The notes beneath the pieces are model-generated. The model had not been told where the DNA came from, searched no databases, and saw only the letters and a list, made by a program, of their open reading frames with translations. A stretch of DNA of 64,000 nucleotides. Source: a bacterium (GTDB lineage Bacteria; Zhuqueibacterota; Zhuqueibacteria; Residuimicrobiales; Krinioviventaceae). The position numbers were made by a program, and so were the translations under genes. Within the stretch, counting starts at the first letter, position 1. The number at the start of each line of letters is the position of its first letter. The stretch lies in NCBI GenBank assembly GCA_029561455.1, contig JAKQIY010000076.1:81838-145837 (forward strand), read 5' to 3'. Positions 3,085-50,232 of this stretch are shown here, piece by piece.

Positions 3085-3101
3085 AATTCTCTTGATTCAC
3101 A

Positions 3102-25241: not shown

Positions 25242-25405
25242 AATAACGCCGGTATTGCGGAAAAGAAAATATACCGGGGTTATGTTAAAATAAATGTTGC
25301 AATTTATCTTTACTTGTTTTAAATTTAAAACTAAGATGTATAGTGTGTATTGACGATATTGCAATTGCAGATGTTAGTGTAGCAGCAAATTCCGGTTATC
25401 AGAAA

Positions 25406-26443
25406 ATGAAAGGATATACTTTGAAAAAGACAACGTTATTGTTGATAGTAATATTTTTTATTATCCCCTTGCGTTCCTTTTCCCAGGTATCATATTATGG
25501 TGGTAAAGGGCTTTTACGAATAATTGAAGCGGAAACAATTCATCCCGGAGTTCTGGCCATTAATGCGGTTTACAATGGTTACGCTGCAGGCGATAATTAT
25601 GATTTCAGTGAAGATCATTCCATGTATCTGGGCCTCACAGTCGGATTAACCGAGCAATTTGAGATTTTATCACAATTAGTGCCATACCAGGATGATCAAA
25701 AACATACCTGGGGGCCGATTGGCGATACCAAATTAGGCGTAAAATATCATATCCCCAACAACAGCACCTATGTAAAATTTGGAGTTGTTGGTTTTATCAG
25801 TATTCCAACAGCAGTCAATCATAATGTCCCTTTTGAATCATACAGCGATGATGCGATGGGCTGGGGTTTAATGAGTTTAACATCATTTGATCTGAAAAAC
25901 CTCTCATCCTCCATTCCGTTAAAATTAACTATAAATATTGGTTATCGCGATCATAACTGGGGCGATCAGTTCTTTGCAGCCCGTAAAGATCAGTTAATTG
26001 GTGGTATAGGTTTTAAATTTCCGATTCGCTCAAATTTACTTTATTCAGAAGTGAGCGGAGAATATTTTATCAATAACTCCGAAAATGTCAGTCCCAGCCA
26101 AAACTTTATCCGCTTCACCCAGGGGTATCGTTTTGTCGGCCCCTGGCACCTCATTTGTGACCTGGCTGCCGATATTGAATTAGGCGGTTATAAACCCGAT
26201 GCTAAAGACTTGTTCAAAGATTCCTATATTAAAGATTATGCCGATTGGAAAATAATATTTGGTGTTTCATACAGAACCACTCTATTTGCCGGCAAGACCA
26301 AGTCGGAAAAGTTACAGGAAGAAAAAGCCAGGTCTGAGCAACAGGAACTTGATACCATACAGGATAAAAGAGAAAAGGTAATTAAGGATCTTGAAGAATT
26401 AAGGAAACAACTGGAACAGGAAAAAAAGCCGAACGCTGAATAA
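25406..26443 (+). CDS. Outer-membrane beta-barrel-like protein with C-terminal coiled-coil tail, hypothetical
   Basis: Start moved to ATG 25406 (MKGYTLKKTTLLLIVIFFIIPLRSFSQ signal peptide); amphipathic beta-strand pattern; last 60 aa are a charged coiled coil (KLQEEKARSEQQELDTIQDKREKVIKDLEELRKQLEQEKK). Confidence 0.45.
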   Translation: MKGYTLKKTTLLLIVIFFIIPLRSFSQVSYYGGKGLLRIIEAETIHPGVLAINAVYNGYAAGDNYDFSEDHSMYLGLTVGLTEQFEILSQLVPYQDDQKHTWGPIGDTKLGVKYHIPNNSTYVKFGVVGFISIPTAVNHNVPFESYSDDAMGWGLMSLTSFDLKNLSSSIPLKLTINIGYRDHNWGDQFFAARKDQLIGGIGFKFPIRSNLLYSEVSGEYFINNSENVSPSQNFIRFTQGYRFVGPWHLICDLAADIELGGYKPDAKDLFKDSYIKDYADWKIIFGVSYRTTLFAGKTKSEKLQEEKARSEQQELDTIQDKREKVIKDLEELRKQLEQEKKPNAE

Positions 26444-26575
26444 TAATTAAGAATTTTTTACGTATTTTTTATGTTTTGTAGTATAATTTATTATTAACAA
26501 AAATTTAAAAAGGTATTTTCAGGTTTATCAGAAAAATGCCGCTAGTCTGTGATCACAAAGTTATTCCGATAAAAC

Positions 26576-27982
26576 ATGAATTTTGTAATACAAAAATTTT
26601 TTATTTTCATAAATATTCAATATAAATTCCGGGCTGTTCTCCTGGTCCTATGTTTTATATTTTCAATTAATACTTTTGCCTTTACCCCAACAGATTCCCC
26701 GGTAAAGCCAATGAGCCCGCGGCAATATGAGGATTTAGAAAAAGCCTCTGCTAAATTACATGCGGAAGCGCAAAAGTTATTTGAAAGCCAAAACTATTGG
26801 GAAAGCGCCCGCAATCTCATCATTTTACTGGATTTTAACAATAATTACTCCAGGATAGACGAGGTGCTTTTCACCCTGGGTGATTGTCTTTACGAAATTG
26901 GTCTTTATGAAGGTTCCAAAAAAATATTCAAATACCTGGTAAAGAAATTTATCTCCAGTGATCAACTACCCCGTGCATTACTCGGGTTACAACGTATTGA
27001 ATATGATAGTGAGAATTTGATTAAATGTATCGATTTTTATAAAGTAATTACCAGAGGAAGCCCCTCACAGGAAATTCTGGATTGTTCACGCTATTATGCA
27101 GGTCTCAGTTTTTATAAACTGAATGATTATAATAATGCCATAGATATATTGTCGCAAATCAGTAAATCAAATTCTTATTACGCTTTTGGGCAATATACCT
27201 GTGGTTTATCTTATCTGCGATTGAAAAAGGTGCGCAAAGCGGTAGATACCTTAAATGGTATTTTGCGTATTGCTATAGTAAACGATGAAATCCGCAGCAT
27301 TGTAGATGAAACCCATTTAACACTGGGTTATATTTATTATGAACTTGGCTATTATGAACATTCATGGCATCAGTTTAGTGCTGTATCTTCAAAACATACC
27401 AACTATCGCGATGCTTTATTATCGGCTGGATGGGCGGCTACCAAACTTCAGGATTATGAACGGGCCATTAAACCGTTAACACAACTGGTCAGCTTCCAAC
27501 AGGAAGACGAGAAAACCCAGGAAGGATTCTTTTTACTAGGCCAATGTTATTTAAAATTGGGGCTATATGATGATGCCCTAAAAATATATGAATTTTTGGT
27601 CAATATATTACCGAACCGAGAACTTGTGCCGGTAATAATTCAACAAGTTGGCAGCAGTATAGCCCAGGAAGAAAAAAAGATCGAAAAGATCAAAATGGAT
27701 TTGCTGGTTCTCGAAACTAAATTATTAAACCTGATTCAGCTATCACCCGATATGGATACCCCCTTATACCTGCAACAGGAAAAAGAGGGCATAACCCTGA
27801 CCAGAAATAACTTGTTAACTCAGATTCAAACCGAACGTAAATCATTCGAACAGTTCTCCATGCAAATCAAGGATATGAAAGAAAAAATCCAGATTAAAAA
27901 AGAACGTCAGGATTGGAGAGCATTTGCTGAATATGGTAAATCACGAGCCATGTTTCTCAAGAGAACAGAATCACAAAACTAA
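26576..27982 (+). CDS. TPR-repeat protein with N-terminal anchor and C-terminal coiled coil (GltE/GltD-like candidate)
   Basis: Hydrophobic N-terminus, multiple TPR units (YYELGYYEHSWHQF...), C-terminal coiled coil. Confidence 0.55.
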   Translation: MNFVIQKFFIFINIQYKFRAVLLVLCFIFSINTFAFTPTDSPVKPMSPRQYEDLEKASAKLHAEAQKLFESQNYWESARNLIILLDFNNNYSRIDEVLFTLGDCLYEIGLYEGSKKIFKYLVKKFISSDQLPRALLGLQRIEYDSENLIKCIDFYKVITRGSPSQEILDCSRYYAGLSFYKLNDYNNAIDILSQISKSNSYYAFGQYTCGLSYLRLKKVRKAVDTLNGILRIAIVNDEIRSIVDETHLTLGYIYYELGYYEHSWHQFSAVSSKHTNYRDALLSAGWAATKLQDYERAIKPLTQLVSFQQEDEKTQEGFFLLGQCYLKLGLYDDALKIYEFLVNILPNRELVPVIIQQVGSSIAQEEKKIEKIKMDLLVLETKLLNLIQLSPDMDTPLYLQQEKEGITLTRNNLLTQIQTERKSFEQFSMQIKDMKEKIQIKKERQDWRAFAEYGKSRAMFLKRTESQN

Positions 27983-30918
27983 TGTTGCTGATGAAAAACT
28001 GCCTTTTTAATAAAATTTTTTTATTTATAATCCTGTTTCTTTCCACAACCCCCTTTTACCTGCAAACCGGTTTTGCGCAGGAGAGCGCTTTTGTCTCCGC
28101 AATTTTAAAAGAAACCGGCGAAGACCTGGTAAAGCTGAGTGAAATAATCAGAGAACACGAAACCCTGCTGCAAAAATATCCCAAGGGGCCTTTTGCTTCT
28201 ACCATCATGTTCCAGTTAGCCGAGTTGGAAGCGCAAAAAAGTAATATAATCTATCAGCAGGAAATGCGGCTTTATGAAGAAGATTTAAAGAATTTCGACG
28301 CGGGCAAACTTGCCGTTGAACCCGAAATGCCCAAACTGAATATGGATAGAACTATACAATATTGCAATGTCTTACTCAAAGAGTATCCAAATTCAAAATT
28401 TCAGGACAAGATATTATACAAGCTGGGTATTTCATATTTTCAGGAAGGGGATAAATTAAGAGCCAAAGACTATTTTGAAAGTATTGTAGCCAATTACCCT
28501 GAATCTACAGTTTCCCTGGAATCTCATTTCCGTATCGGCGAATATTATTTTGATAAACGTGATCTTGATAACGCCATATTTCATTATAGCAAGTTACTGG
28601 TTGATTGGAATAATCCGTATTTCGATATGTCGTTATATAAACTGGGGTGGTCTTATTATAACCAGAATAATTATAGCAAAGCCATCAGCAGCTTTATTTA
28701 TTTAATTGAAGATATCTCCCTGGTAGAAAAAGCCAAAACTCAGGTGCTGAGTAAAAGTAAGACCGATTTACGGCTGGAATCGATACATTATATTGCGAGT
28801 TGTTTTACGGAATTTGGCGGCCCTAAAGGCGCCAAAGAGTTCCTGCTCAAATATAAAGATAAAGATTATACATTGCCAATTCTGCTGAAAATGAGCGAAC
28901 TGTATCAAAAAAGAAATTATTATGCTGAAGCTATAGAAACCTATAAAGCAATTTTGGAATTATATCCTTATTATTCTGAAGCCCCTGAAATTTATCATAA
29001 TATCATTACAAATTACGAAGCTGGTGAAGATTATTCCGGCGCAAATAAAACCCGTGAAGAATTGGTAGATAAACTGGGGCCGGGCAGCAACTGGATCAGT
29101 CAAAATCCCGATACCCAGGTTCAAAATACCGGGCTTGCAGCAACCCGTGAAACTCTTGTCTATCTTGGCGGATTTTTCCAGGCAGAAGCGCAAACCAACG
29201 GCAATAAAGAAACCTATCTAAAAGCAATAGCCAAATACCTGGACTATTTAAAGAAATTCCCGGATGATGAAAATGTGCCGAAGATTAATTATTACCTGGC
29301 GGAATGTTATTACAATATTCAGGGCTTTACCCAGGCCGCCGATTGTTATTACAATGTTGTAATTAAAGACTTTCTTGACAAGACCGGTTTCCGCGAAGAA
29401 GCAGCCTATAACCGTATTCTGTGCTACTATGAATTAATGGATGCTCCCGGCGCGACAGATGAAAAAATGACCAGCATTGCCAATTTTTTGGGTACCAACG
29501 ATACCCTGGTCATTGTGAACATCAATAAACCAGCCGAGATCAACATATTACAGGCCAGCAATGACTTTTTACTCACTTTTCCCAAAAGTAAGTGGCTGGA
29601 CCAGGTCATGATGAAATATGGTGAAATTCTACACAGTCTCAAATACTTTTTACCGGCAATAGAAGTTTATAAAAAAGTTTTACAATTAGGTAATACCCGA
29701 CCATACTATCTCACTGCGTCCATGAGTGCGGGGCAATGTTATTTTGACGCTGAATTATTCTATGAAGCGGAAATCTGGTTTAATAATATTGCACGAAATT
29801 ATCCCGATTCAACACGCTATACCAAAAGAGCGCAAATACTTGCTTCTTCAGCCAATTTTAAAATTGCCGAACAGCTAAGTGATGCGGGCAAAAACCAGGA
29901 AGCGGCTAAATTGCTAAGCACAGTTGCAGACAAAGCAGTTGAACCGGGTATTCAGGAGCGCGCAATTTTTGAAGCTGCTGCGCAATATCAAAAAGCCGGG
30001 CAACCAGCTCAGGCGGCAACGATCCTGGAAAGATTGATCACTCTGCAACCGTCATCAAAGCTGGCAGACGAAGCACTAAAAAATGCCGCTGAAATCAGGG
30101 AGAATAATAAAGAATCGGCATCGGCTGCTCACAACTACCTGCTTTTGGCCGATAACTATCCCTCCTCCAAATATACCAAACGTTCAATTATAAATGCCGC
30201 AGTATGTTATGAAAACCTGCAAGATTGGTTTTCCGCCAAGGCAACCTTTAACAAGTTTATCACAACATTTCCCGATTCCGGCGATGACTATATCGAATGT
30301 ATGTACAAAGTTGGCGAAATGAATTACAAGCTGAATGATTATTATAATGCTGAAAATTCATTTAAAAATACCATATTGGCGTACGACAGGATGGTTAATA
30401 ACGGACAGGAACTGGATACTTATTTCATAGCCCAGGCGCAGTTTATGCTTGGAGAGATATATTTTATTTCCTATAAACAAATAAATCTAATTCCCCCGCT
30501 GGAAACGAATTTAAAGCTCAAAGTTGCCAGTTTTCAAAAGGTTCTTAAAGCATATAAAGATGCCCTGCTCTACCAGGTAGCCGATTGGAGTACTGCTGCT
30601 ACATTTAAAATTGGCATGACTTTTGAAGAGTTATTTAGAGCATTCATAGAATCACCCCCTCCTGCGGAGTTGACCGGTGATCAGTTAACTGTTTATGTTA
30701 CCGCTTTGAAGGAAAAAGCCGAACCCTATAAACAACAGGCTTTAGAGACATACAAACTCAATGTAGAACAAGCGGCAACTAACAATATTTCAAATAACTG
30801 GATCGATGAAAGCAAAAAAAGGATAGAAGCCCTTTCCGGTGAAGCGGAAATTAATAACGATATATTGAACAGCGCCGACCAGGAAAGTGTAACGCAGGGA
30901 ATTAATGGAAAATCTTGA
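27982..30918 (+). CDS. Large TPR-repeat protein (978 aa), periplasmic
   Basis: Signal peptide/anchor; more than 15 TPR-like repeats throughout; ATGA start/stop overlap with the preceding TPR gene. Confidence 0.6.
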   Translation: MLLMKNCLFNKIFLFIILFLSTTPFYLQTGFAQESAFVSAILKETGEDLVKLSEIIREHETLLQKYPKGPFASTIMFQLAELEAQKSNIIYQQEMRLYEEDLKNFDAGKLAVEPEMPKLNMDRTIQYCNVLLKEYPNSKFQDKILYKLGISYFQEGDKLRAKDYFESIVANYPESTVSLESHFRIGEYYFDKRDLDNAIFHYSKLLVDWNNPYFDMSLYKLGWSYYNQNNYSKAISSFIYLIEDISLVEKAKTQVLSKSKTDLRLESIHYIASCFTEFGGPKGAKEFLLKYKDKDYTLPILLKMSELYQKRNYYAEAIETYKAILELYPYYSEAPEIYHNIITNYEAGEDYSGANKTREELVDKLGPGSNWISQNPDTQVQNTGLAATRETLVYLGGFFQAEAQTNGNKETYLKAIAKYLDYLKKFPDDENVPKINYYLAECYYNIQGFTQAADCYYNVVIKDFLDKTGFREEAAYNRILCYYELMDAPGATDEKMTSIANFLGTNDTLVIVNINKPAEINILQASNDFLLTFPKSKWLDQVMMKYGEILHSLKYFLPAIEVYKKVLQLGNTRPYYLTASMSAGQCYFDAELFYEAEIWFNNIARNYPDSTRYTKRAQILASSANFKIAEQLSDAGKNQEAAKLLSTVADKAVEPGIQERAIFEAAAQYQKAGQPAQAATILERLITLQPSSKLADEALKNAAEIRENNKESASAAHNYLLLADNYPSSKYTKRSIINAAVCYENLQDWFSAKATFNKFITTFPDSGDDYIECMYKVGEMNYKLNDYYNAENSFKNTILAYDRMVNNGQELDTYFIAQAQFMLGEIYFISYKQINLIPPLETNLKLKVASFQKVLKAYKDALLYQVADWSTAATFKIGMTFEELFRAFIESPPPAELTGDQLTVYVTALKEKAEPYKQQALETYKLNVEQAATNNISNNWIDESKKRIEALSGEAEINNDILNSADQESVTQGINGKS

Positions 30919-30929
30919 GGTAATACAAA

Positions 30930-31313
30930 ATGGTAATTAAAAATTTCAAATATGTTATTATGATAGCTGTTTATATAATGCTATCGATTAATGTGTCACT
31001 CAATGCGCAAACACAGGAAAATAATTTAATTGACGGCCAAACTGCACTGAACACTCCGGCAATTGCCAATGATTCTTTAACCATTGATAGCGCCAACATA
31101 AAAATGTTCATTGATAAAATTGAGGTTAATGTCCAGTTGGAAAAACCACAAGCAATGTTTATCCTGCCTGGTTCAACACCCGATATAGATGATATTCAAA
31201 TCGAACATTCATTTTTCAACGAAATTTTCCGACCAGTCGAAAAACGGGGAAGAATTCAATCAAGCTTAACAACAGAGCCTGCCATAGATCGTAAAGACTA
31301 TATTCCCTGGTAA
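30930..31313 (+). CDS. Small secreted hypothetical protein
   Basis: 127 aa with signal peptide (VIMIAVYIMLSINVSLNAQ); 12 nt after the giant TPR gene. Confidence 0.35.
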   Translation: MVIKNFKYVIMIAVYIMLSINVSLNAQTQENNLIDGQTALNTPAIANDSLTIDSANIKMFIDKIEVNVQLEKPQAMFILPGSTPDIDDIQIEHSFFNEIFRPVEKRGRIQSSLTTEPAIDRKDYIPW

Positions 31314-31383
31314 GCCTGAAACTAAAATATTGTATATTTTTTGATCTTAACTTTTTTAACAACAACTGATTAAGGAGGTATCC

Positions 31384-32001
31384 TTGGGTAGCATTATAAG
31401 TTTTTTTGTCAAGGGTGGAACGGTTATGTATCCAATTCTGCTGGCGCTCATATTTGGTATTGTGGTGATAATTGAAAGAGTAATTTTTATACTATTTAAA
31501 AACCGTATAGATTCAGCATTGTTCGTAAACAAAATTGCCGAATTGATTAAAAGCGGTAATATCAACAAAGCAATTGAATATTGCAATATATCCGATGCGG
31601 CGCTGCCAAATATCACCAAAGCCGGATTACAAGAACTCCATTCATCACCGGCAAATGTACAAAACGCCCTGGAATTAGCCGCAATGGTTGAAATACCCAA
31701 ACTGGAAAAAAGAATAAATTACCTGGCGATGATTGCCAACGTAGCAACACTGTTGGGACTGCTCGGTACGATTTTTGGTCTAATCAGTTCATTCGCCGCT
31801 GTTGCCCATGCTGAAGCGGCTGAAAAAGCCACTTTGTTAACCGCCGGTATATCAATAGCTATGAACACAACCGCGTTTGGGTTGGTAGTCGCTATCCCCT
31901 GCCTGATTGGTTATACCTATCTTACGGAAAAAACCAATGAAATTATTGATGAAATAAACGAAAACGTAGCTCGTCTTTACCGGATAATGACTTCGAGGTA
32001 A
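31384..32001 (+). CDS. MotA/TolQ/ExbB proton-channel family protein
   Basis: TTG start 6 nt after AAGGAGG; three TM helices; conserved ExbB/TolQ stretch TLLGLLGTIFGLISSFAAVA...GISIAMNTTAFGLVVAIP. Confidence 0.85.
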   Translation: MGSIISFFVKGGTVMYPILLALIFGIVVIIERVIFILFKNRIDSALFVNKIAELIKSGNINKAIEYCNISDAALPNITKAGLQELHSSPANVQNALELAAMVEIPKLEKRINYLAMIANVATLLGLLGTIFGLISSFAAVAHAEAAEKATLLTAGISIAMNTTAFGLVVAIPCLIGYTYLTEKTNEIIDEINENVARLYRIMTSR

Positions 32002-32004
32002 TGA

Positions 32005-32472
32005 ATGAATCTAAAAGAATCAATGCGGCGCAGGATGAAAGGTCATGCTGAAGATGTTGAATTAAATCTCACTTCAGTTATGAACATCTTTCTGATTCTT
32101 ATTCCTTTTTTATTATTGACTGCCGTTTTCGTTCGTATATCTGTACTTGAGCTCTCTTTGCCAAGCCTCGATTCCGGCAGCCGGGCAGCGCAGGTCAAGC
32201 AACAAAAAACGGCGATTATAAATATTCTTATTATCGATGGCAAGGGTTTTGAACTAAAAAGTCCCGAAATGAAATTTCCTCTAGTATCAAAGAAAGATGC
32301 CAGTTACGATTGGGACAGGTTGGCAATACAATTAAAAGAAATTAAAACTAAATATCCGGATTCGGAAGATATGATCATCTCCCCGGTTGATTCAATCAAA
32401 TACCAAATAATTATCAGTGTTATGGATAAATGCCGGGAATCCGGATTCCCCAATATTTCTATTTCAGGTTAA
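32005..32472 (+). CDS. ExbD/TolR-family biopolymer transport protein (paralogue 1)
   Basis: Single N-terminal TM (LTSVMNIFLILIPFLLL) plus periplasmic ExbD/TolR domain. Confidence 0.8.
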   Translation: MNLKESMRRRMKGHAEDVELNLTSVMNIFLILIPFLLLTAVFVRISVLELSLPSLDSGSRAAQVKQQKTAIINILIIDGKGFELKSPEMKFPLVSKKDASYDWDRLAIQLKEIKTKYPDSEDMIISPVDSIKYQIIISVMDKCRESGFPNISISG

Positions 32473-32484
32473 GAAAGTTAAAAT

Positions 32485-33000
32485 ATGAATATTGACGATA
32501 AAACCCATTTATTAAATTTAGCAAAAAATACCAAACACAGAAAACGTGGTACCGCCAGTTTAAAACTGACCTCCATGATAGACATGTTCACAATTTTATT
32601 GGTATTTTTATTGCACAGGTATAGCGCCGAAGGTCAGATCATGACCCTGACCAAAGATCTGAGTCTTCCGGAATCGACTTCGCAATTGCAGCCCAAGGTT
32701 ACCTCAATTATTTCTATTACCCGGGAATGGGTATTAGTAGATGGTAGACCGATTGAACGGATTGAAAATATTCTAGCGGAAGATAAATTGATTATTGCAC
32801 CGTTGCATACGGAATTGACCAAAATTAAAAGTATTACCCAGGGTATTAGTACAATTTCCGATCAGATGGGCGGCTTTAAAGGAAACATTACAATACAGGG
32901 TAATGAAGATATAACATTTAATTTATTAAAAAAGGTAATGCTTACTTGCGGAACTACCGGATATAATAATATGTTGCTGGCAGTTGCGCAAATCGAATAA
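32485..33000 (+). CDS. ExbD/TolR-family biopolymer transport protein (paralogue 2)
   Basis: SLKLTSMIDMFTILLVFLL TM plus ExbD/TolR periplasmic domain; second copy in tandem. Confidence 0.8.
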   Translation: MNIDDKTHLLNLAKNTKHRKRGTASLKLTSMIDMFTILLVFLLHRYSAEGQIMTLTKDLSLPESTSQLQPKVTSIISITREWVLVDGRPIERIENILAEDKLIIAPLHTELTKIKSITQGISTISDQMGGFKGNITIQGNEDITFNLLKKVMLTCGTTGYNNMLLAVAQIE

Positions 33001-33050
33001 TCCGATAATTAACAATGACGATATTTAAATAATTATAGAAATATATATTA

Positions 33051-34442
33051 ATGGCACATACGCGAAAACATTCAATACTGGCAACGAAAATTGTTCAGGG
33101 TAACAAGGAAATCGAACTGCAAATCAAACCGAACAACAAGTTGACCATTGGTCGTAGTCCTGATAATGATATTGTTATTTACAGCGATGCATACCCTAAA
33201 AAGCATACTCTTATTGAATGTAAAAAAGATACATGTGTTTTAAACATTACCCCGAACATGAGCGGCGCAATTGAATATAAAAATTCAAAACTTGATTTTA
33301 ACGATTTATTTCTGCACAATTTGCTGCCTCGAAAAGGGGAATTTTACAGTCTTGCTTTTGGTCATGGCAGGACCGGCGCAATAAAGATTGCCGATACAAT
33401 AGTATACTTTAATTATGACGGCGCCGGCTTGCAGCCAATAAAAGATATGCCGGGTTATACCTGGAAGCAATCCTTTTCTAAAACTTTTTCCAAAGACCTG
33501 TTGTTCAAATCGCTTTTAACGATCTTTTTCTGTCTGGAGATTTTCCTGGCTATAAAACTAAAGGGTTACCAGGTTCCCGATATTGAACCACCGGATATGG
33601 ATAAAATTCCGCAGCGCTTTGCAAAATTTATTATTAACAAGCCGACGCCCCCTCCTGAATTGGAATTAGCGACCTCATCAGGCGATGGTGATGGTTCCTC
33701 GGAAGAAGAACAGGGCGAGAAAAAAGAAAATGAACCTAAAGCTCAAAAATCAACCGGTGGCTCAGGTGGAGATCAAGGTAATAAACCGGTAGTTGCCCAG
33801 GGCTTATTAGGCCTTATAGGCGGCGCCGGAAGTTCAGATAATGCCAGCGCCACAGCAGACTTTTTAATTGAACAGGGCCTAGTCAAGGAACTGGATGAAT
33901 TGATCGGCAGCCAAAAATTGAATAATACCCGAGCTAACGGCAGAAGAGGCGACGGTTCCGGCTCCGGTTCCGGAACGGGCAGCGGTTCCGGTAGTGGCGA
34001 TGGCTTGGACGATCTTGTAGCATTAGGTCTGTCCGGCATTGATGACTTGCTTCCCGCCGGTGGTGGTGTGGAAAAAGTAGCGTTGCAGAAAAAAGGGAAT
34101 GTTAATATCGAACAACCCAAACAAATGCGCGGTTCGCAGGCAGCGCAGGCTCAACGCACACCCCAATCCGTTATGTCGATCATCAACTCGCAGGAGGGGC
34201 GTATTATGTATACCTATAATAAATACCTGCGCGAAGATCCGAACCTGCGTGGTAAAATCAATATCGATATTACAATTGAAGCGGACGGGTCAGTCAGTAA
34301 TGTTGCCGTTCTGGATACGGATATTCCGGTACAAGAGTTTATCCAGGATATAATCAGTATTTTACGACGCTTGAAATTTCCGGCAATTACCGAAGGGGCA
34401 ATTCAGGTCAACCTCCCCTTTGTGTTTAACCGGGTGAATTAA
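33051..34442 (+). CDS. FHA-like / TM / Gly-Ser linker / TonB C-terminal-like domain protein (GltG/AgmV-like)
   Basis: N-terminal FHA-like motif (KLTIGRSPDNDIVIYSD...KKHTLIE), one TM, Pro-rich and acidic segment, (GSGSGTGSGSGSG) low-complexity linker, C-terminal about 90 aa TonB_C-like (GKINIDITIEADGSVSNVAVL...AITEGAIQVNLPFVF). Confidence 0.6.
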   Translation: MAHTRKHSILATKIVQGNKEIELQIKPNNKLTIGRSPDNDIVIYSDAYPKKHTLIECKKDTCVLNITPNMSGAIEYKNSKLDFNDLFLHNLLPRKGEFYSLAFGHGRTGAIKIADTIVYFNYDGAGLQPIKDMPGYTWKQSFSKTFSKDLLFKSLLTIFFCLEIFLAIKLKGYQVPDIEPPDMDKIPQRFAKFIINKPTPPPELELATSSGDGDGSSEEEQGEKKENEPKAQKSTGGSGGDQGNKPVVAQGLLGLIGGAGSSDNASATADFLIEQGLVKELDELIGSQKLNNTRANGRRGDGSGSGSGTGSGSGSGDGLDDLVALGLSGIDDLLPAGGGVEKVALQKKGNVNIEQPKQMRGSQAAQAQRTPQSVMSIINSQEGRIMYTYNKYLREDPNLRGKINIDITIEADGSVSNVAVLDTDIPVQEFIQDIISILRRLKFPAITEGAIQVNLPFVFNRVN

Positions 34443-34450
34443 ATTAAAAA

Positions 34451-34478
34451 ACCCTGCTTCCGGCAGGGTTTTTTTTGG
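34451..34478. terminator. Bidirectional rho-independent terminator between convergent genes
   Basis: AAAAAA-CCCTGC-TTCCG-GCAGGG-TTTTTTTT. Confidence 0.8.
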
Positions 34479-34491
34479 TTACTTTATTTTC

Positions 34492-35925
34492 TTAAAGATT
34501 ACCATCACCAGGTTTAGTGATGTTTTTATAATCCAGCGGGTTTATTTGATAAATACGAATTTTTTGCTGTAAATATTGACGTTTGATTTCCAGTAATTTC
34601 GCCGCTTTGCTTACATTCCCGGCACTCAGTTTGAGCGCCTGATTGATCATATTCCATTCGAACTCGCGGATGACCAGGTCTTTGGCATTACTAAAAGAGA
34701 CCTCGCCCGGAGAAAGAGATATCCGGGATTGAGGTGATTTAGTTAGCTCCACCGGCAGTAAATCGGTAGTTATAAGCGGTTTATCAGCCAGTACCACACA
34801 TTGTTCCAGAACATGCATAAATTGGCGGACATTGCCGGGCCATTCATAATCCAGCAATTGTTGCATGGCGGCAGATTCAAACCCCTGAATCATTTTGGTA
34901 TGTTTTTCGGCATATAAATGCAGGAAATGGTTTGACAGGATAGGAATATCCGTTTTACGTTCGCGTAGGGAAGGTAATTGAATTTCCACAACTTTGATGC
35001 GGTAATACAGATCCTCCCGGAATCTTCCCTCCTCTATCTCTTTACGTAAATTTTTATTGGTGGCGCTGATCAACCTGACATCGGTTTGTAATACTTTTTT
35101 ACCTCCAAGCCGGGTAAAGGATTTTTCTTCTAGTATCCTTAATATTTTAGCCTGGGTATCGATACTCATATCGGCAATTTCATCCAGAAAAAGAGTGCCG
35201 CCATTGGCAATTTCAAATTTCCCCTGGCGTTGATTGATCGCCCCGGTATAGGCGCCCTTTTCGTGACCGAACAACTCGCTTTCGACCAGGTCTTTGGGAA
35301 TAGCTGCGCAATTCATGGTAATAAACGGGCCGGCAGTCCGGGCGCTGAATGAATGGATCGTTTTGGCGGCCAGTTCTTTGCCGGTGCCGCTTTCGCCGGT
35401 TAGTAATACGGTTATATCGGTCGGCGCTACTTTTTCAATCAATTTAATAACTTCAAGAATTTTAGGGCTTTCACCGATAATAGAGCCCCGATTTTGTCCG
35501 GCCAGTTGCTGGCGTAATAATACATTTTCGCGCCCCAGGGTGATCTTTTCCAGGGCTTTGTTCACTACCAGGCGTAGTTCTTCAATTTCAAAAGGTTTGG
35601 ACAAGTAATCATAAGCTCCGGCTTTCATGGCTTCAACGGCTATTTTTTCAGAACCGAAAGCAGTAAGAACAATGATAAGCGGTAATAGCCCGGTTTCACG
35701 CTCCTGCTTTTGTACCTGGCCGATAAACTCCAGGCCGTTCATTTCCGGCATGTTAATATCGCACAACACTACATCGGGCTTGAATTCAACCAGTTTTTCC
35801 AGGGCAATCCGGCCGTTTTCTGCCTCTTCCAAATGATAGCGTGACTTGCCGAGCGCTTTGCGCATTCCATAACGGGCGGCGTCTTCATCATCAACTATTA
35901 ATATTCGGGACTTTTCAGTATTCAT
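34492..35925 (-). CDS. Sigma-54-dependent two-component response regulator (NtrC family)
   Basis: REC domain (ILIVDDE...D), AAA+ sigma-54 activation domain (GESGTGKE Walker A, GAYTGA variant of GAFTGA, ESELFGHEKGAYTGA), C-terminal Fis-type HTH. Confidence 0.9.
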   Translation of the reverse strand: MNTEKSRILIVDDEDAARYGMRKALGKSRYHLEEAENGRIALEKLVEFKPDVVLCDINMPEMNGLEFIGQVQKQERETGLLPLIIVLTAFGSEKIAVEAMKAGAYDYLSKPFEIEELRLVVNKALEKITLGRENVLLRQQLAGQNRGSIIGESPKILEVIKLIEKVAPTDITVLLTGESGTGKELAAKTIHSFSARTAGPFITMNCAAIPKDLVESELFGHEKGAYTGAINQRQGKFEIANGGTLFLDEIADMSIDTQAKILRILEEKSFTRLGGKKVLQTDVRLISATNKNLRKEIEEGRFREDLYYRIKVVEIQLPSLRERKTDIPILSNHFLHLYAEKHTKMIQGFESAAMQQLLDYEWPGNVRQFMHVLEQCVVLADKPLITTDLLPVELTKSPQSRISLSPGEVSFSNAKDLVIREFEWNMINQALKLSAGNVSKAAKLLEIKRQYLQQKIRIYQINPLDYKNITKPGDGNL

Positions 35926-35971
35926 TTTGATCTCTGACTTTGCAATCTCACTTGTGAAAAATTTAAAACCA

Positions 35972-38116
35972 TCACTTTTTATTCACGGGGAAATAGACTA
36001 AAAATTCAGCGCCAGCATTAACATCGCTTTTAACATCAATAAAGCCACCCAGTTCCTCAACATTTTGTTTTACTATAGCAAGGCCGAGTCCTGTGCCTTT
36101 GGTGCGGGTGGTGAAAAATGGCTCGAATATTTGTTTAATATTCTCTTTGGTTATACCGGGTCCGTTATCTTTGACCTTTAATATAAACCAGTTTTTTACC
36201 TGTACAAGATCAACCCGGCGGGAGGCTTTTTTTATTTTATCAAGTCCTGCTTGTTGTTCAAGAGTGATGACAATTTCCCCCTTTGAACCAACCGACTGTA
36301 TAGCATTTAAAACCAGGTTGTAAATTATTTCACGAAGAGATTGTTTTTTAGCCCAGAAAACCATATTTATCTCCGGGGTCTGAAAAACAATACTTGTTTG
36401 ATTGCGGTTGGCCTGGTATTTAAGCAGGTCGACAACATCCTGAACAATTTCCGCCAGGGAGACTTCCTCGACATTGGCGGTTGAAGGCCGGGCAAAACTC
36501 AGCAATTTTTCCAAAACCGTATGCAGGCGGTTGATTTCTTCAATTACAATTTGCAGATCTTGCGCCTCATCGCCGTTGGCGTTTTCATGTAAAACCTGAA
36601 CAATACTTTTTATAGAAGACAATGGATTTTTGATTTCATGCGACATGGTCGTTGCCAGTTGCCCCAAAGAGTTTAACTTTTCCGCCTGGTAAACCCGCGC
36701 TTCCAGGTTCAACCGTTCCTGCACCAGCCGGGCATTTTCAATTGCCAGGGCAACCTGGTTGGCAAAGGTTTGCAGCATGTCAATCTCTTCTTCAGAAAAG
36801 GGATTTCCCGATTGTTTGCCGGACAGACAGATCATTCCGGTCATCTTTTTCCGATAAAAAATCGGTACGGCCAGTTCCAGTTTGTTATTCTTGAGCGCAT
36901 TGATAACCAGGTGAGTTTTGATCTGTTGGCGCAAGCGCAGGGCGCGGATCGAGGTAAAGGCATCGATAAGGGAGAAAAAATCTTTTAAATCCTGGTTGCC
37001 GATAGTTTTTAAAATTTCCTGCTTTTTGGCAGTTGACTGAAAAACAACAATGGTCAGCGATTTCACCTTGAAAGCAGATTTAAGGGATTCGCTGATGGTA
37101 TTGAGCAATTTTTCCAGATCGACAATGCCGATGATGTTGTCGGATAGTTCACGTAAAATTTGTTGATAAAAATAGCGATCCTTGAAAAAAATCCGGTCGA
37201 GTCGTTTTTGAAAAGCCTCGCGAAACGGCTGAAAAGCAAACACCAGGGCGACCAGCAGTAATCCTTCAATAAAGGTAGAATTGATCTCAGGGAACAGCTT
37301 TAAATATTCGCCCAGCCGGCGGATACCCAGCAAATAAACGGTCATCAGGGCGCCGTAGATGATGGAATAGATGAGACTTGGTTTGATGACCAGGCGGTAA
37401 AAATTATAGCGGTAAACATAATAACCAAGCACCGCCATGGGTAAGGTTGGCGAAAGCAGCATTAAAAGTCCCAGATAATAGCCAATATAAGAAATTTTAT
37501 AAGTCGGTATTATTAAAATAACAATGATGCCAACGCCGATCAGCGCCAGGGTGATACTCAAATCGCGGTAAAAATGCCGATCGGCTTCGTTCTCATGGGT
37601 TCGGGCCAGGTTTTCGGACAAGATCAGGGAAAAAGTGATAGCGAATAACATCCATAAATAATAGGGAAAACGGATCGCTTCGTCCAATTCGACATAAAGA
37701 GAGCGTATTTTCAGGTTATAATAGATGCCGAAATAGAGAAATACAAATACCGGTAAATAGGTGAACACAATTAACAGGGTATGATGGCGAACTATCCATG
37801 GTCTGAGTTTTCTTTTGGCGCGATGAAAGAACGCCGCCAGGGTGTTCATCATTGCAGAAGGGATGAGCGCCAGGCCCAGATACGAAATAACGATGAGGAT
37901 ATTAGTTTCGAGCAAAACAACTTTGCCAAACAACATGCGGTTTATCAGGGAAAGAAAATTTCCTCCCAGCCATAAAGCACAGGCTACCAGCAAGATCACC
38001 AGCGCATAATCGTCATAATGCTTGGGTTTCTTTTTTAAGGTCAGGCTGAAGATGATCACGGTCAGCGCGGTGCCAAAACCAAACCCCAAAGTGTTGATAA
38101 AAGTATACAAGGCCAT
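35972..38116 (-). CDS. Sensor histidine kinase with N-terminal polytopic membrane sensor and GAF domain
   Basis: About 330 aa multi-TM N-terminus, GAF-like region, HisKA H-box (MSHEIKNPL), HATPase_c N/G1/G2 boxes (NLVLNAIQ...DNGPGI...GTGLGLAIV). Confidence 0.85.
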   Translation of the reverse strand: MALYTFINTLGFGFGTALTVIIFSLTLKKKPKHYDDYALVILLVACALWLGGNFLSLINRMLFGKVVLLETNILIVISYLGLALIPSAMMNTLAAFFHRAKRKLRPWIVRHHTLLIVFTYLPVFVFLYFGIYYNLKIRSLYVELDEAIRFPYYLWMLFAITFSLILSENLARTHENEADRHFYRDLSITLALIGVGIIVILIIPTYKISYIGYYLGLLMLLSPTLPMAVLGYYVYRYNFYRLVIKPSLIYSIIYGALMTVYLLGIRRLGEYLKLFPEINSTFIEGLLLVALVFAFQPFREAFQKRLDRIFFKDRYFYQQILRELSDNIIGIVDLEKLLNTISESLKSAFKVKSLTIVVFQSTAKKQEILKTIGNQDLKDFFSLIDAFTSIRALRLRQQIKTHLVINALKNNKLELAVPIFYRKKMTGMICLSGKQSGNPFSEEEIDMLQTFANQVALAIENARLVQERLNLEARVYQAEKLNSLGQLATTMSHEIKNPLSSIKSIVQVLHENANGDEAQDLQIVIEEINRLHTVLEKLLSFARPSTANVEEVSLAEIVQDVVDLLKYQANRNQTSIVFQTPEINMVFWAKKQSLREIIYNLVLNAIQSVGSKGEIVITLEQQAGLDKIKKASRRVDLVQVKNWFILKVKDNGPGITKENIKQIFEPFFTTRTKGTGLGLAIVKQNVEELGGFIDVKSDVNAGAEFLVYFPVNKK

Positions 38117-41128: not shown

Positions 41129-44128
41129 TTAACCTACATCTGTTCTTACTTTATCAAACAACCAATCCAGTAAATACCTTGCAAAATTGCGATCATCGGT
41201 AAAGCGTTTGTACAAGTTAAAATTTGATTCAACAAACTCCTGCATACGTTCCTTGACCACATTATCAAAGGTAAGCCTGGCATTTTCCGGTGTATTCGCT
41301 TTAAGGCTGGCATGGATAACCGGATTTTCAACAAATTCCTGTTTAAGCTGTTGAAAAATAATTGTGTCTTTATCCGTAAAATTCGTACCGAACCGTTCAT
41401 TTAATTGTTTGATGATTTGCGACAAGGGTTCGATATCCTCATCCAACGGTTTGTGGGATTTTTCTTCATCTTCCGGGTTTAATACGCTCTGTTCCTGTTT
41501 TAATTTAATTGCTACACTTTTACCTTTTTTCACCCGGTAAGTAGCCATATCCACCATGCCCTGGATTTCCCGGGGCAGTTCATCTTTTAAAGGCGGTAGA
41601 TAACGAAGCAGCAACCGGGCGAATACATACATTTTTTCCAGATCGGCATCGACAAAGGTGATGATCTGGGATAAAAACGAATACAGCCGCACATAATCCT
41701 GCAGTTGTCCGCGCAAATCGGTTTGTTCTTCTGTGATTAAAAGTTTAAAGCGGTCGCTAAATGGGGCTAAAAAATGGTAAAGTTTATTCAGCTTGGCATT
41801 AGGCACAAAATATATTTGCGCGAATTTCTGCAAATCCATTTCGGAAATCAAGTGAAAATCCAAAATCCGCCGATACAGATCGTACAAGAGTTGTGGGTCG
41901 GTGGATTCGGAAAGAATTGTTTTTTCATAATAAGGCTGAAAGGCTTTTTGGATGTCATCCGCTTCATTACAAAAATCCAGTATCATGGTTTCGTGTTTAT
42001 CCGGGGGACAGATACGGTTCAGGCGGGATAAGGTTTGTACAGCATTCACCCCGCTAATTCGCTTGTCCACATACATGGTATGCAAAAGTGGTTGGTCAAA
42101 GCCGGTCTGGAATTTTTCCGCCACAATCATAAACCGATATTCCAGGCTTTTAAAAGTTCTGGCTGTCTGCGTTTCCGAAATACTATTCATATTGCCTTCA
42201 GTATATTCTTTTCCATCTAGAGGTATTGAACCTGAAAAAGCTACCAGCGCCTTGTATGGGTATCCCATTTCCTGAAAATATTGATCTATTGTTAATTTGT
42301 ATTGAACAGCATTAGCGCGAGACCTGGTTACGATCATTGCTTTTGCTTTATTTTGAATGCGATACGCTACGTTTTCATGAAAATGCTCGACCATAATTTC
42401 AAGTTTTTGCCGTATAGCATCGGGATGTCCCTCGACAAAGCGTTTTAATAAACTCGAAGCCTTGTTACGGTCAAACTTGGGGTCATCCTTAATTTTTTTC
42501 AGTAATTTCCAATAAGTTTTATAGGTAGTATAATTTTCCAATACGTCCAATATAAACCCCTCTTCTATGGCCTGGCGCATACTGTACAAACTGAAAGGTT
42601 CAAACGAGCCATCCGGTTGTTTAGCGCCAAAAAGTTCCAGGGTTTTAGGCTTGGGCGTGGCGGTAAAGGCAAAAAAGCTGACATTCGGTTGTCGACCCCG
42701 CGCCTTGATCTCGGCAACTATACGATCCTGCACGTCTGCCGCTTCTACCTCATCCTCTTGTTCGTTATCTTCACTGGTTGGGGAGGATAAAACTTTTTTC
42801 AGACTTTTGGTGGCCTCGCCGGTTTGGGAGGAATGGGCTTCATCGATGATTACCGCAAAGCGATGTCCGTCCATTTCTTTCATGTCATCTGCAATAACCG
42901 GGTATTTTTGCAAGGTGGACACAATAATATTTTTACCTTCTTCAAGGGCTTTTTTAAGTTGTTGGGCGGTACTGGTGATATTTTCCACAACTCCGAGCGT
43001 CTGTTCAAATTGCCGCATTGTGCTTTGTAATTGCCGGTCCAACACCCGCCGGTCGGTAATAACGACAATTGTATTAAATACCCGTTGATCCGCCTCGTCA
43101 TGCAGCACTGCAAGCTGGTGCGCCAGCCAGGCAATGGAATTGGATTTACCGCTACCCGCCGAGTGCTGGATCAAGTATCGGTGACCCGGTCCATGTTGCC
43201 GGGCATGATCTACAAGCCGCCGTACGCAGTCCAGTTGATGGTAGCGTGGAAAGATGATGGATTTTTCCCCGGTGAGTCTGCCGTCTTCATCTTCCATTTC
43301 GATTTCCGTTATAAACTGCTGGACAAGATTGAGCACACTATCCCGGGTCCAAATCTCATCCCATAAATATGAGGTGGCAAATCCCTGCATAGCCGGAGGA
43401 TTGCCGGCGCCGCCGAACTTGCCGCGATTAAATGGTAAAAACCGCGTGCGTTTCCCTTCCAGTTTTGTCGTTACATAAACCAGGTCGGGATCGATGGCAA
43501 AATGCGCCAGGCAGCGGCGGAAAGCGAATAATAACTCTTTGGGATCGCGGTCATTTTGGTATTGCTGAATAGCGTGCTTGACGTTCTGACCGGTTAACGG
43601 ATTTTTAAGTTCGGCGGTAATTATAGGTATGCCATTGAGAAACAACACCATATCCAGACAATTTTCGTTTTTGAGGCTGTATTTCAACTGACGAACGATA
43701 CTGAACTGGTTGGCAAGGTACAGCCGTCGGGTATCCTCGTTCAGGCCGGAGGAAGGTTTATAGTATGCCATTTGAAATTTACAGCCGTAACTACGCAAGC
43801 CGGAACGCAGTACTTTGAGCGCGCCGTATTTATCCAGATCCCGGCTCAGTAATTTCGCAAACTGGTTTTTGGCTTGCTCGCGGTGCTGATCGCAAAATTT
43901 CTGCCAGTCCTGCGGCTGGGTGGCGCGGATAAAGTTTATGGCGTCCTCCGCAATGATGCCCAGAGTACGGTCATAGTCTTCCGGTTGGCGTTTGATGTAC
44001 CCCTTGCTGTGCGGTATATTATAAGGAACGTCGGTCTCTTTAAAACGAGTATCGCTGCCGGTTTGTGGAACAGGATTAGTCAGAGACTCTTCAATTGAAT
44101 TTTCAAACGCTTTTTCAGAAATATTCAT
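41129..44128 (-). CDS. hsdR: Type I restriction enzyme R subunit
   Basis: 999 aa; SF2 helicase motifs (SAGSGKSNSIAWLAHQL Walker A; VIIDEAHSS DEAH box); N-terminal nuclease region; typical HsdR length. Confidence 0.95.
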   Translation of the reverse strand: MNISEKAFENSIEESLTNPVPQTGSDTRFKETDVPYNIPHSKGYIKRQPEDYDRTLGIIAEDAINFIRATQPQDWQKFCDQHREQAKNQFAKLLSRDLDKYGALKVLRSGLRSYGCKFQMAYYKPSSGLNEDTRRLYLANQFSIVRQLKYSLKNENCLDMVLFLNGIPIITAELKNPLTGQNVKHAIQQYQNDRDPKELLFAFRRCLAHFAIDPDLVYVTTKLEGKRTRFLPFNRGKFGGAGNPPAMQGFATSYLWDEIWTRDSVLNLVQQFITEIEMEDEDGRLTGEKSIIFPRYHQLDCVRRLVDHARQHGPGHRYLIQHSAGSGKSNSIAWLAHQLAVLHDEADQRVFNTIVVITDRRVLDRQLQSTMRQFEQTLGVVENITSTAQQLKKALEEGKNIIVSTLQKYPVIADDMKEMDGHRFAVIIDEAHSSQTGEATKSLKKVLSSPTSEDNEQEDEVEAADVQDRIVAEIKARGRQPNVSFFAFTATPKPKTLELFGAKQPDGSFEPFSLYSMRQAIEEGFILDVLENYTTYKTYWKLLKKIKDDPKFDRNKASSLLKRFVEGHPDAIRQKLEIMVEHFHENVAYRIQNKAKAMIVTRSRANAVQYKLTIDQYFQEMGYPYKALVAFSGSIPLDGKEYTEGNMNSISETQTARTFKSLEYRFMIVAEKFQTGFDQPLLHTMYVDKRISGVNAVQTLSRLNRICPPDKHETMILDFCNEADDIQKAFQPYYEKTILSESTDPQLLYDLYRRILDFHLISEMDLQKFAQIYFVPNAKLNKLYHFLAPFSDRFKLLITEEQTDLRGQLQDYVRLYSFLSQIITFVDADLEKMYVFARLLLRYLPPLKDELPREIQGMVDMATYRVKKGKSVAIKLKQEQSVLNPEDEEKSHKPLDEDIEPLSQIIKQLNERFGTNFTDKDTIIFQQLKQEFVENPVIHASLKANTPENARLTFDNVVKERMQEFVESNFNLYKRFTDDRNFARYLLDWLFDKVRTDVG

Positions 44129-44213
44129 ACCGTACTACCCCTTTAATCAGTTTATTTGCTCTTTAACCAGCTTCTATTTACAATTTAAGTGATTCCTGGA
44201 TATATTACAATAC

Positions 44214-50037: not shown

Positions 50038-50232
50038 TTGTTTAAAAAGGTGATTTCCGGGAATGCTGCATCAAAATACATTAAATTTTGAAAAGAACCA
50101 AAAGAAAATTTTTTAAAAATAAATGCAGGAATCATCAAAAAATAGTGGTTGGTTACAAATGCAAACAAGCGGGCCACGGAAAAGCTGCCCGCCGCGTAAG
50201 GTTACTGAAAAGATTAGCAATATAGGGTGAGA

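Follow-up and report, generated by a model that had tools for sequence, protein, structure and literature searches.

What does a protein do that carries a forkhead-associated (FHA)-like domain on one side of the inner membrane and a TonB-like domain on the other, and with which partners does it act? The question is raised by the gene at 33051-34442 on the forward strand of a 64,000-nucleotide stretch of DNA (contig JAKQIY010000076.1 of assembly GCA_029561455.1, positions 81,838 to 145,837; hereafter the window) from a bacterium of the phylum Zhuqueibacterota. An initial annotation, made from the letters of the sequence, proposed that its product couples cytoplasmic phosphothreonine (pThr) signalling to a periplasmic energy-transducing arm. 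The second half of this proposal is borne out: the gene directly follows those for an ExbB/TolQ-like protein and two ExbD/TolR-like proteins, and its product combines a TonB-type C-terminal fold with full-length homology to GltG-type proteins. The product is probably the force-transducing subunit (of the GltG/PglI type, functionally TolA/TonB-like) of a trans-envelope machine that is driven by the proton-motive force and encoded by the operon at 25403-34442. Within an envelope machine already published as a "core", it is an ordinary member rather than a signalling device of a new kind.

The stretch 33051-34442 corresponds to exactly one open reading frame (ORF) of 463 amino acids (aa), in which the two peptides cited in the initial annotation, TIGRSPDNDIVI...KKHTLIE and GDGSGSGSGTGSGSGSGDG, were both found. 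A hydropathy scan revealed a sole strongly hydrophobic segment (aa 150-170; Kyte-Doolittle maximum 2.26), in agreement with the one transmembrane (TM) helix expected after the head domain, and the Pro-rich, acidic stretch described downstream of it was located directly past the membrane, at aa 176-235. In the AlphaFold2 model, for which an alignment of 34 homologues served as input, aa 10-122 form an all-beta domain of 11 strands (pLDDT, for predicted local distance difference test, 85-91), aa 138-171 one long helix, aa 189-345 a mostly disordered region with three short helices (pLDDT below 50 over most of its length) and aa 349-461 a confident alpha/beta domain (pLDDT 87-96). In a Foldseek comparison with the PDB, the N-terminal domain matched 3gqs (E=1.5e-3), followed by Ki67, Dun1, Rv1747 and GarA, with probabilities of about 1.0; the entries 3gqs, 1r21, 2jqj, 6ccd, 3po8 and 7rj3 identify its fold as the FHA beta-sandwich (TM-scores, on the target, of 0.5-0.6), as the initial annotation had anticipated. 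The C-terminal domain matched the C-terminal domains (CTDs) of TonB proteins, namely those of H. pylori (6sly), FusB (7zc8) and E. coli TonB in 2gsk and 1u07. By hydropathy, AlphaFold2 and Foldseek, the protein therefore has the GltG/PglI architecture, in which a cytoplasmic FHA fold is followed by a single TM helix, a long periplasmic linker and a TonB-CTD-like domain. Its parts are as follows.

33051..34442, + strand: GltG/PglI-like bitopic inner-membrane transducer, 463 aa (ORF; NF033760, hhalign)
33078..33416, + strand: cytoplasmic FHA-fold domain, aa 10-122, degenerate at the pThr positions (AlphaFold2, Foldseek; Pfam FHA sub-threshold)
33498..33563, + strand: single TM helix, aa 150-171, with a polar mid-membrane residue, Glu163 (hydropathy; AlphaFold2 helix 138-171)
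33576..34157, + strand: periplasmic linker, aa 176-369, Pro-rich/acidic and mostly disordered (pLDDT, conserved columns)
33609..33635, + strand: periplasmic juxtamembrane motif P-Q-R-F-A-K-F-I-I, aa 187-195 (conserved; R189 invariant)
33948..34004, + strand: (Gly-X)n run G300-G318 (GDGSGSGSGTGSGSGSGDG), whose coding DNA is imperfect and of mixed codons
34158..34430, + strand: C-terminal AgmX/PglI domain with TonB-CTD fold, aa 370-460 (NF033768, Foldseek)

The check named in the initial annotation, a search with the Pfam hidden Markov models (HMMs) for FHA and TonB_C, went against it as far as this one sequence is concerned. The protein falls short of both models, the outcome that had been named there as a refutation: Pfam FHA scored 17.6 bits on the whole protein (gathering threshold 20.7; aa 32-64 only) and 19.9 bits on the isolated domain, and Pfam TonB_C scored 14.4 bits (threshold 24.6). 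Likewise, TIGR01352 (tonB_Cterm) remained below its cut-off of 27.1 with 20.1 (whole protein) and 24.3 bits, and the score with Yop-YscD_cpl was 19.2 bits, for a cut-off of 33.2. In contrast, NF033768, the model of the AgmX/PglI C-terminal domain (myxo_SS_tail; cut-off 40), was passed with 70.8 bits by the whole protein and with 75.1 bits by aa 370-463. The resemblance of the C-terminus to TonB_C thus holds for the fold and fails for the TonB_C sequence models. Both domain assignments stand in spite of the failed Pfam scores, because they are supported by evidence at the level of the family and of the fold.

The relationship to GltG was drawn from the NCBIfam GltG HMM and from a locus in a Myxococcales metagenome-assembled genome (MAG), which is described below. 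With NF033760 (gliding_GltG), aa 26-460 aligned in one collinear stretch to positions 223-646 of the 650-position profile (77.9 bits, E=6e-22); 45.9 bits of this score came from the C-terminus, 10.8 bits from the N-terminal domain and the remainder from the TM helix and linker. The exact protein is present in NCBI under the label "AgmX/PglI C-terminal domain-containing protein". Its relatives are from MAGs of candidate division KSB1 and Calditrichota; their labels include "TonB family protein" and "energy transducer TonB", and many carry a precomputed PF03544 match. A search of 1.84 billion representatives with a KSB1-family profile recovered 295 clusters at E<=1e-30 and 4973 at E<=1e-10, many of them full-length (440-495 aa). 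Eight distant representatives that were re-searched proved to be mainly from Myxococcota (Myxococcales, Polyangia, Bradymonadia); a further one came from a Pseudomonadota MAG, and a cluster look-up returned the "AgmX/PglI C-terminal domain-containing protein" name for Pseudomonadota and an unclassified bacterium. In hhalign, the KSB1 proteins and the Myxococcota/Pseudomonadota relatives aligned end to end over 442 columns (probability 100%, E=6e-70). On sequence comparison, then, the protein is a full-length homologue of the Myxococcota GltG-like proteins: a member of the GltG/PglI family, previously undescribed in the KSB1 phylum, that is neither a GltG equivalog nor, by HMM threshold, a TonB. 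The wider family also includes headless forms of ~340-355 aa that start at the TM helix (P0117, P0122, P0126 and others) and long forms in which as many as three FHA-like copies stand in tandem (P0178, 925 aa; P0128/P0161, 585-588 aa). It follows that the head is a module that has been gained or lost.

The gene is the last of a same-strand cluster, and the genes immediately upstream encode one MotA_ExbB and two ExbD proteins, equivalent to a TolQ-like and two TolR-like subunits. The other components, together with a hairpin that closes the operon ahead of a convergent gene, are listed here.

25403..26443, + strand: 12-stranded outer-membrane (OM) beta-barrel with a C-terminal helix of ~40 aa (AlphaFold2, Foldseek; start of the ORF caller GTG 25343)
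26576..27982, + strand: exported tetratricopeptide repeat (TPR) protein TPR468, 468 aa, with a C-terminal coiled coil, weakly GltC-like (gliding_GltC E=7e-10)
27982..30918, + strand: exported TPR protein TPR978, 978 aa (TPR families; counterpart of TPR1213 of locus L075, which has the position and size of GltD)
30930..31313, + strand: small exported protein s127, 127 aa, in the GltF position (position, synteny; weak match to s86 of L075)
31384..32001, + strand: proton-channel subunit of the MotA/TolQ/ExbB family, AglR-like (Pfam MotA_ExbB E=9e-30)
32005..32472, + strand: ExbD/TolR paralog 1, with TM residue Asn27 (Pfam ExbD E=2e-21)
32485..33000, + strand: ExbD/TolR paralog 2, with TM residue Asp33 (Pfam ExbD E=2e-11)
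34446..34474, no strand: hairpin with a 12-bp stem flanked by an A-run and a T-run, resembling a bidirectional terminator, between the stop codon of the transducer gene and the convergent response-regulator gene

In a scan restricted to one genome per GTDB species, 74 species-level loci were found, all of them in KSB1/Calditrichota-type MAGs, three of which (L031, L035, L054) bear the label Caldithrix sp. The order barrel-TPR-TPR-small-ExbB-ExbD-ExbD-transducer was kept wherever the contig was long enough; the barrel was syntenic in most of the 74 loci, and s127 and ExbB were present in the loci whose contig reaches them. The ExbD pair is asymmetric: where TolR/ExbD proteins carry the proton-accepting Asp of the TM helix, Asn27 stands in paralog 1 (66 of 66 loci) and Asp33 in paralog 2 (68 of 68), and the same asymmetry was seen in the Myxococcales locus. 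It points to an obligate heterodimeric "axle" with a single protonatable Asp, which fits the concept of an AglQ/AglS heterodimer (PMC11761067). In four of the loci (L043, L051, L062, L066), a second ExbB and one or two further TonB/GltG-like genes lie directly downstream and may represent a genuine Ton/Tol system; the L066 copy of the transducer gene has an in-frame stop at its start. The barrel, the first conserved gene of the operon, was previously "hypothetical" and without annotation. Its model (pLDDT 84.9, predicted template-modelling score 0.75) consists of 12 strands and a helix at aa 300-341, which would be periplasmic, and its best Foldseek match, ahead of other OM barrels, was FapF (E=5e-7), an amyloid secretion channel. 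For s127, the Pfam and NCBIfam scans gave no family match.

Such a cluster has a published precedent. Luciano et al. 2011 (PMC3169522) defined a "core complex" consisting of the Group B genes gltC, D, E and G together with aglR, Q and S in one cluster, and reported it in Gamma-, Beta- and Deltaproteobacteria and in Fibrobacter, also outside the gliding bacteria; it was restated by Wartel et al. 2013 (PMC3858216). The connection to the window operon is provided by the Myxococcales locus L075, which holds a homologue of the transducer (P0215, 472 aa). Its gene order is TPR(706+ aa)-TPR(1213)-TPR(463)-small(86)-ExbB-ExbD-ExbD-homologue-202 aa-431-aa barrel-like protein, and its proteins match the NCBIfam models for GltC (1e-19), GltE (2e-25) and GltG (1.7e-54; profile 224-649). 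The sizes 1213/463/86/202 mirror those of M. xanthus GltD/E/F/H (1191/471/89/209). Genes for polysaccharide export of the Wza/Wzc/Wzy type follow directly after this core (L075:13926-21419); in the window, a Wzc-like gene (GNVR + AAA_31) and a Poly_export gene are found at 766-3812, 30 kb from the operon. The window proteins paired with those of L075 as follows, where the E-values are relative to a database of 10 proteins and the weight lies in the bit scores of the strongest matches.

TPR978 with the L075 protein TPR1213: 27% identity over 1011 columns, 280 bits, E=2e-82
ExbB with the L075 ExbB: 47% identity, 139 bits
ExbD1 with the L075 ExbD1: reciprocal positional match
ExbD2 with the L075 ExbD2: reciprocal positional match
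Transducer, aa 1-203, with the L075 homologue: 32% identity, 99 bits
s127 with the L075 protein s86 (86 aa, same position): weak, 28.5 bits, E=1.4e-4
TPR468 with the L075 GltC-like protein: weak best match, E=6e-10

Like the core complex, the window operon is a single cluster of TolQ-like, two TolR-like, GltG-like and TPR genes in organisms that are not known to glide by Glt, and it corresponds one-to-one with the bridge locus. It differs in that the small TPR gene precedes the large one, in the lack of a clear counterpart of the GltE-like gene, in the inclusion of a 12-strand OM barrel with a C-terminal coiled coil, and in its hosts, the 74 species-level genomes of KSB1/Calditrichota, phyla that are unlisted in PMC3169522.

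The closest known counterparts of the transducer are GltG (PglI, MXAN_4867) and its paralog NfsG, the transducers of the Agl-Glt gliding and Agl-Nfs spore-coat machines of M. xanthus. M. xanthus GltG was described as FHA + TM + TonB_C and binds the TolQ-like AglR in a two-hybrid assay (PMC3169522), as does NfsG (PMC3858216). In a structural model (PMC11761067), the TM helix and the membrane-proximal central FHA domain of GltG are docked on AglR in an AglR5-AglQ-AglS stator, the disordered periplasmic segment wraps GltD, and the TonB-CTD sits on GltD and touches GltF; an extra, canonical FHA domain at the N-terminus (residues 1-114, Pfam FHA E=5e-13) is predicted to bind the gliding-specific GltI. 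The window protein shares with GltG and NfsG the bitopic N-in topology, the FHA fold, the one TM helix, the long disordered segment and the AgmX/PglI TonB-CTD-like tail, and, as in M. xanthus, it is encoded with TPR proteins and served by a TolQ-like motor with two different TolR-like subunits. Unlike GltG, it has 463 rather than 640 aa, and the canonical N-terminal FHA is absent: the protein begins at position 223 of the GltG profile and has one FHA-like domain only, the membrane-proximal one. Furthermore, the motor genes occupy a separate locus in M. xanthus and the same operon here, the scanned operon genes match no Group A gliding family (GltA/B/H/I/J/K, CglB), and the host is an uncultured KSB1-type bacterium. 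The GltG/PglI architecture itself has been known since 2011, and the NCBI pipeline already labels the protein accordingly. New in the present analysis are the phyletic extension to KSB1/Calditrichota and the compact single-operon form with its own OM barrel, along with the comparative details: the Asn/Asp asymmetry of the TolR-like pair, the Glu at the SHLS His position and the headless variants.

The TM helix and linker bear further on how the protein might work. At position 163, the 34 family members have Glu in 22 cases, Asn in six, His in five and Gly in one. In the alignment with the Myxococcota/Pseudomonadota relatives, Glu163 falls on the His of their S-x3-H motif. The Ser-His pair of the corresponding SHLS motif of TonB/TolA contacts TM1 of ExbB/TolQ in cryo-EM structures (PMC12215075). 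The complete motif is present in the distant relatives; the KSB1 proteins have E, N or H at the His position and F or L at i-4. The juxtamembrane motif has a counterpart, IPERFA(R/K)LII, in the distant relatives, and the linker contains the conserved islands GLLGLIGG (aa 251-258), DFLIEQGLVKELDEL (aa 270-284; DFLxxxGLVxELD) and GIDDL (aa 329-333), with conserved columns at G251, L253, G254, L255, L272 and G276. The GLLG-type motif is shared between phyla. The P-x-R-F-A-K/R-F-I motif and the linker islands may be contact sites for the TPR scaffold.

The Gly-Ser run of the linker was first described as near-perfect DNA repeats prone to slippage, a view that the DNA contradicts. Positions 33948-34004 use three different Gly codons and three different Ser codons, Tandem Repeats Finder gave a score of just 35, for a 6-bp unit present in 3.5 copies that match at 86%, and the longest perfect tandem tract is 21 nt with a period of 12, or 1.75 copies. 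In the closest relative (L001, 81% protein identity), a run of equal length is encoded by different synonymous codons. The suggested comparison of linker length between metagenome variants uncovered no polymorphism: 12 contigs, drawn from several metagenomes, carry the exact 463-aa protein, three independent assemblies whose DNA was compared agree at all 1392 nt of the gene (100% identity), the 90%-identity cluster consists of a single sequence, and no length variant of the run was observed in any of these sets. A slippage-prone repeat was therefore rejected. Most of the closer relatives have related (Gly-X) runs, 6-22 residues long, and the distant clade has none; the run is a low-complexity spacer with slow length evolution, not a contingency repeat.

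Of the alternatives to a GltG-type transducer, the one put forward at the outset concerns the head domain: a functional FHA domain would read pThr marks set by a Ser/Thr kinase and thereby gate the TonB-like periplasmic arm. Binding of pThr by FHA domains requires an Arg in the beta3-beta4 region and a Ser in beta4-beta5 (bioRxiv 10.1101/2020.09.22.308627), and the 34 family members were examined for the Arg of the beta3-beta4 loop, the Ser (and His) of the beta4-beta5 loop and the Asn of the beta6-beta7 loop. Gly34 is invariant, and the window protein and its 12 closest relatives keep the Gly-Arg pair and His52, which, with the Foldseek result, would suit pThr recognition. Across the family, the Arg35 position is occupied by R in 13 members, Q in 10, H and L in five each and K in one, such that Arg is gone in 21 of 34; the phosphate-contacting Ser is replaced by Pro49 (Pro in 32 of 34), His52 is retained in 27 and the Asn-loop position is variable. 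Nine of the N-terminal domains of 24 relatives matched Pfam FHA (E<=0.1; best E=2e-5), as this alternative would predict, and 15 matched the non-pThr YscD FHA-like family Yop-YscD_cpl; the family profile gave no relevant match to PDB sequences at E<=1, and thus no solved FHA domain. M. xanthus GltG does possess a bona fide Pfam FHA domain, but this is its extra N-terminal one; the head of the window protein aligns instead to profile positions 223-303, the central FHA of GltG (10.8 bits), which is predicted to be a structural stator-docking module. The look-up of a Ser/Thr kinase proposed in the initial annotation was likewise negative: a crude regular expression for the Hanks catalytic loop had no match in the 64-kb window or, for the 74 related genomes, among the 7224 ORFs of the stretches that reach +-10 kb from the gene, and the Pfam/NCBIfam scans, which covered most window ORFs, turned up neither such a kinase nor a PP2C family. 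With the Ser changed to Pro, the Arg mostly lost and no Hanks motif nearby, the pThr signalling reading is not supported by the sequences, and as an account of this protein it is distinctly unlikely; the head is FHA-like, with most pThr-binding residues lost across the family. A parallel is found in the SctD proteins of type III secretion systems (YscD/MxiG/PrgH/PscD). These are likewise bitopic proteins of an envelope machine in which an FHA fold sits immediately ahead of the one TM helix; this fold, too, lacks the canonical pThr residues, and it is a phospho-independent docking module. Unlike in SctD, the window protein scores below the Yop-YscD_cpl cut-off, and its periplasmic part and machine context are unrelated.

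The remaining alternatives concern the periplasmic arm. In a genuine TonB paralog, energised by ExbB-ExbD-ExbD, the CTD would engage the TonB boxes of TonB-dependent transporters for nutrient uptake. The order exbB-exbD-exbD-tonB is a familiar TonB layout, as in loci of Bacteroidota and Xanthomonas, and the TonB fold of the CTD and the "energy transducer TonB" or "TonB family protein" labels of several relatives, some with PF03544, agree with this possibility. Yet the TonB_C models are sub-threshold and the AgmX/PglI model is above its cut-off; no TonB-dependent-receptor family was detected among the scanned operon genes, and the one OM protein that they encode is a 12-strand barrel that has no plug; the linkage to two large TPR proteins is strict; and every gene pairs one-to-one with a Glt-like locus. 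The 145-aa FHA-fold cytoplasmic domain also departs from the short tail of TonB. A TonB paralog is accordingly very improbable here. The protein may instead be considered as the TolA analogue of a divergent Tol-Pal-like system, acting in OM tethering, lipid homeostasis or constriction rather than in surface transport of the Glt/Nfs kind. By best NCBIfam score, the ExbB gene is assigned to TolQ and ExbD1 to TolR, TPR978 exceeds the cut-off of the YbgF/CpoB TPR model (116.9 versus 90.1 bits, in 8 stretches), and the published core complex has no known function, which leaves room for a role in envelope integrity. This is countered by the AgmX/PglI type of the C-terminal domain, by two non-equivalent TolR paralogs in place of a homodimer and by the absence of TolB and Pal/OmpA-like families among the scanned operon genes; moreover, the second ExbB/TonB-like set downstream in L043, L051, L062 and L066 could be the real Tol/Ton system. 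A Tol-Pal-like system is hence unlikely, though less so than a TonB paralog. E. coli TonB and TolA nevertheless resemble the window protein in their single N-terminal-proximal TM helix and in the ExbB/TolQ-ExbD/TolR genes that lie next to their own; they also share with it the polar nature of the residue at the His position of SHLS, the extended spacer in the periplasm and the fold of the C-terminal domain. They differ in their short cytoplasmic tail, in having His where the window protein has Glu and a Ser at i-4 that it lacks, and in the TolR/ExbD pair, which is heteromeric here.

For the preferred reading, a GltG-type force transducer, a mechanism can be outlined by analogy with the cryo-EM structures of TonB-ExbBD and TolAQR and with what an AlphaFold model and two-hybrid data suggest for AglR-GltG of M. 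xanthus. On this view, the TM helix would dock on the outside of an ExbB/TolQ-like pentamer, which would enclose the ExbD1/ExbD2 heterodimer with its protonatable Asp on ExbD2 only, and the FHA-like head would cap the stator on its cytoplasmic side independently of phosphorylation, in the manner of the FHA-like domains of SctD/YscD. Proton flux would then alter the conformation of the TM helix and linker. The linker is predicted to span the peptidoglycan and wrap the large GltD-like TPR protein, the C-terminal domain would bind this protein and the small one in the GltF position, and the second TPR protein may join that assembly to the OM barrel. Candidate outputs are the movement of a polymer or OM component at the surface or in the periplasm, or OM tethering; the output is probably the same as that of the published Agl/Glt core complex.

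Several observations weigh against this reading. The score for the GltG equivalog is far under its cut-off (77.9 versus 650 bits), and the N-terminal domain alone reaches just E=0.13. None of the NCBIfam gliding models (GltD-type) matched TPR978, and the GltC and GltF assignments of the neighbouring genes, drawn from low scores and position, are weak. The KSB1 proteins are without the Ser of the S-x3-H TM motif, and Glu replaces its His. The window protein keeps Gly34-Arg35 and His52, so that a residual phospho-dependent interaction may persist. Finally, all of the protein-protein contacts outlined above are taken over from models of distant homologues.

The genes around the operon were also surveyed. 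Just upstream, at 23067-25241, is a 724-aa membrane protein with terminal TM segments and a DTSAS motif, similar to a metal ion-dependent adhesion site, and with sub-threshold Pfam matches to VWA (19.8 bits), CARDB and BatD; it occurs upstream in just ~12 of the closest loci, and the position of a protein of the von Willebrand factor A type beside a Glt-like core is reminiscent of CglB. On the reverse strand, at 34492-38116, two regulatory genes converge on the operon, one for a response regulator of the sigma-54 NtrC type and one for a histidine kinase with a GAF domain. This pair is conserved there in ~20 of the closest relatives; the regulator is split between two ORF calls, of 370 and 106 aa, in one metagenome assembly (L077). 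Because an NtrC-type regulator adjoins the operon, a sigma-54 promoter was sought upstream of it and rejected: 27 matches to the -24/-12 elements were found versus 34.7 expected, and none was well placed. Further along the reverse strand, a type I restriction-modification system (41129-48054; HsdR of 999 aa, HsdS, HsdM) contains a Macro-domain protein (44214-44666) inserted between hsdR and hsdS. It is followed, at 48385-57623 of the same strand, by a protein sorted by the type IX secretion system (Por_Secre_tail) and by two large proteins that contain Fibrobacter succinogenes major domains, which fit a host from the Fibrobacterota-Chlorobiota-Bacteroidota superphylum. The guanine-plus-cytosine content is 0.57 at 60001-64000 compared with 0.37-0.47 elsewhere in the window; the jump spans the upstream half of a gene for an Lhr-type helicase of 1502 aa (58981-63489, reverse strand) and an adjoining esterase fragment.

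For the annotation of these genomes, it follows from the above that "FHA" in such genes should not be taken as a sign of Ser/Thr-kinase signalling, and that their "TonB family protein" labels are probably misleading. Outside the myxobacteria, the core-complex module is carried by KSB1/Zhuqueibacterota and Calditrichota, phyla that are uncultured or poorly cultured, as a single operon with strict conservation. With its own OM barrel and a stripped-down transducer bearing one degenerate FHA domain, it offers a simpler system in which the interface of stator and transducer could be approached by structure prediction or cryo-EM, and the invariant Asn/Asp of the TolR pair, the Glu/Asn/His at the SHLS His position and the conserved linker islands provide comparative clues. 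Beyond this, it is possible, but rather doubtful, that the operon encodes a compact, self-contained motor of the Agl-Glt type (a TolQ-like pentamer, an obligate TolR-like heterodimer, an FHA-capped transducer with a membrane Glu, a TPR scaffold and its own barrel) with a function distinct from those of Ton, Tol, Glt and Nfs. If this were true, it would carry out, for example, the movement of a surface polymer or OM protein driven by the proton-motive force in a non-gliding lineage, and would represent, in minimal form, a model of the role that the gliding motor of myxobacteria had ancestrally.

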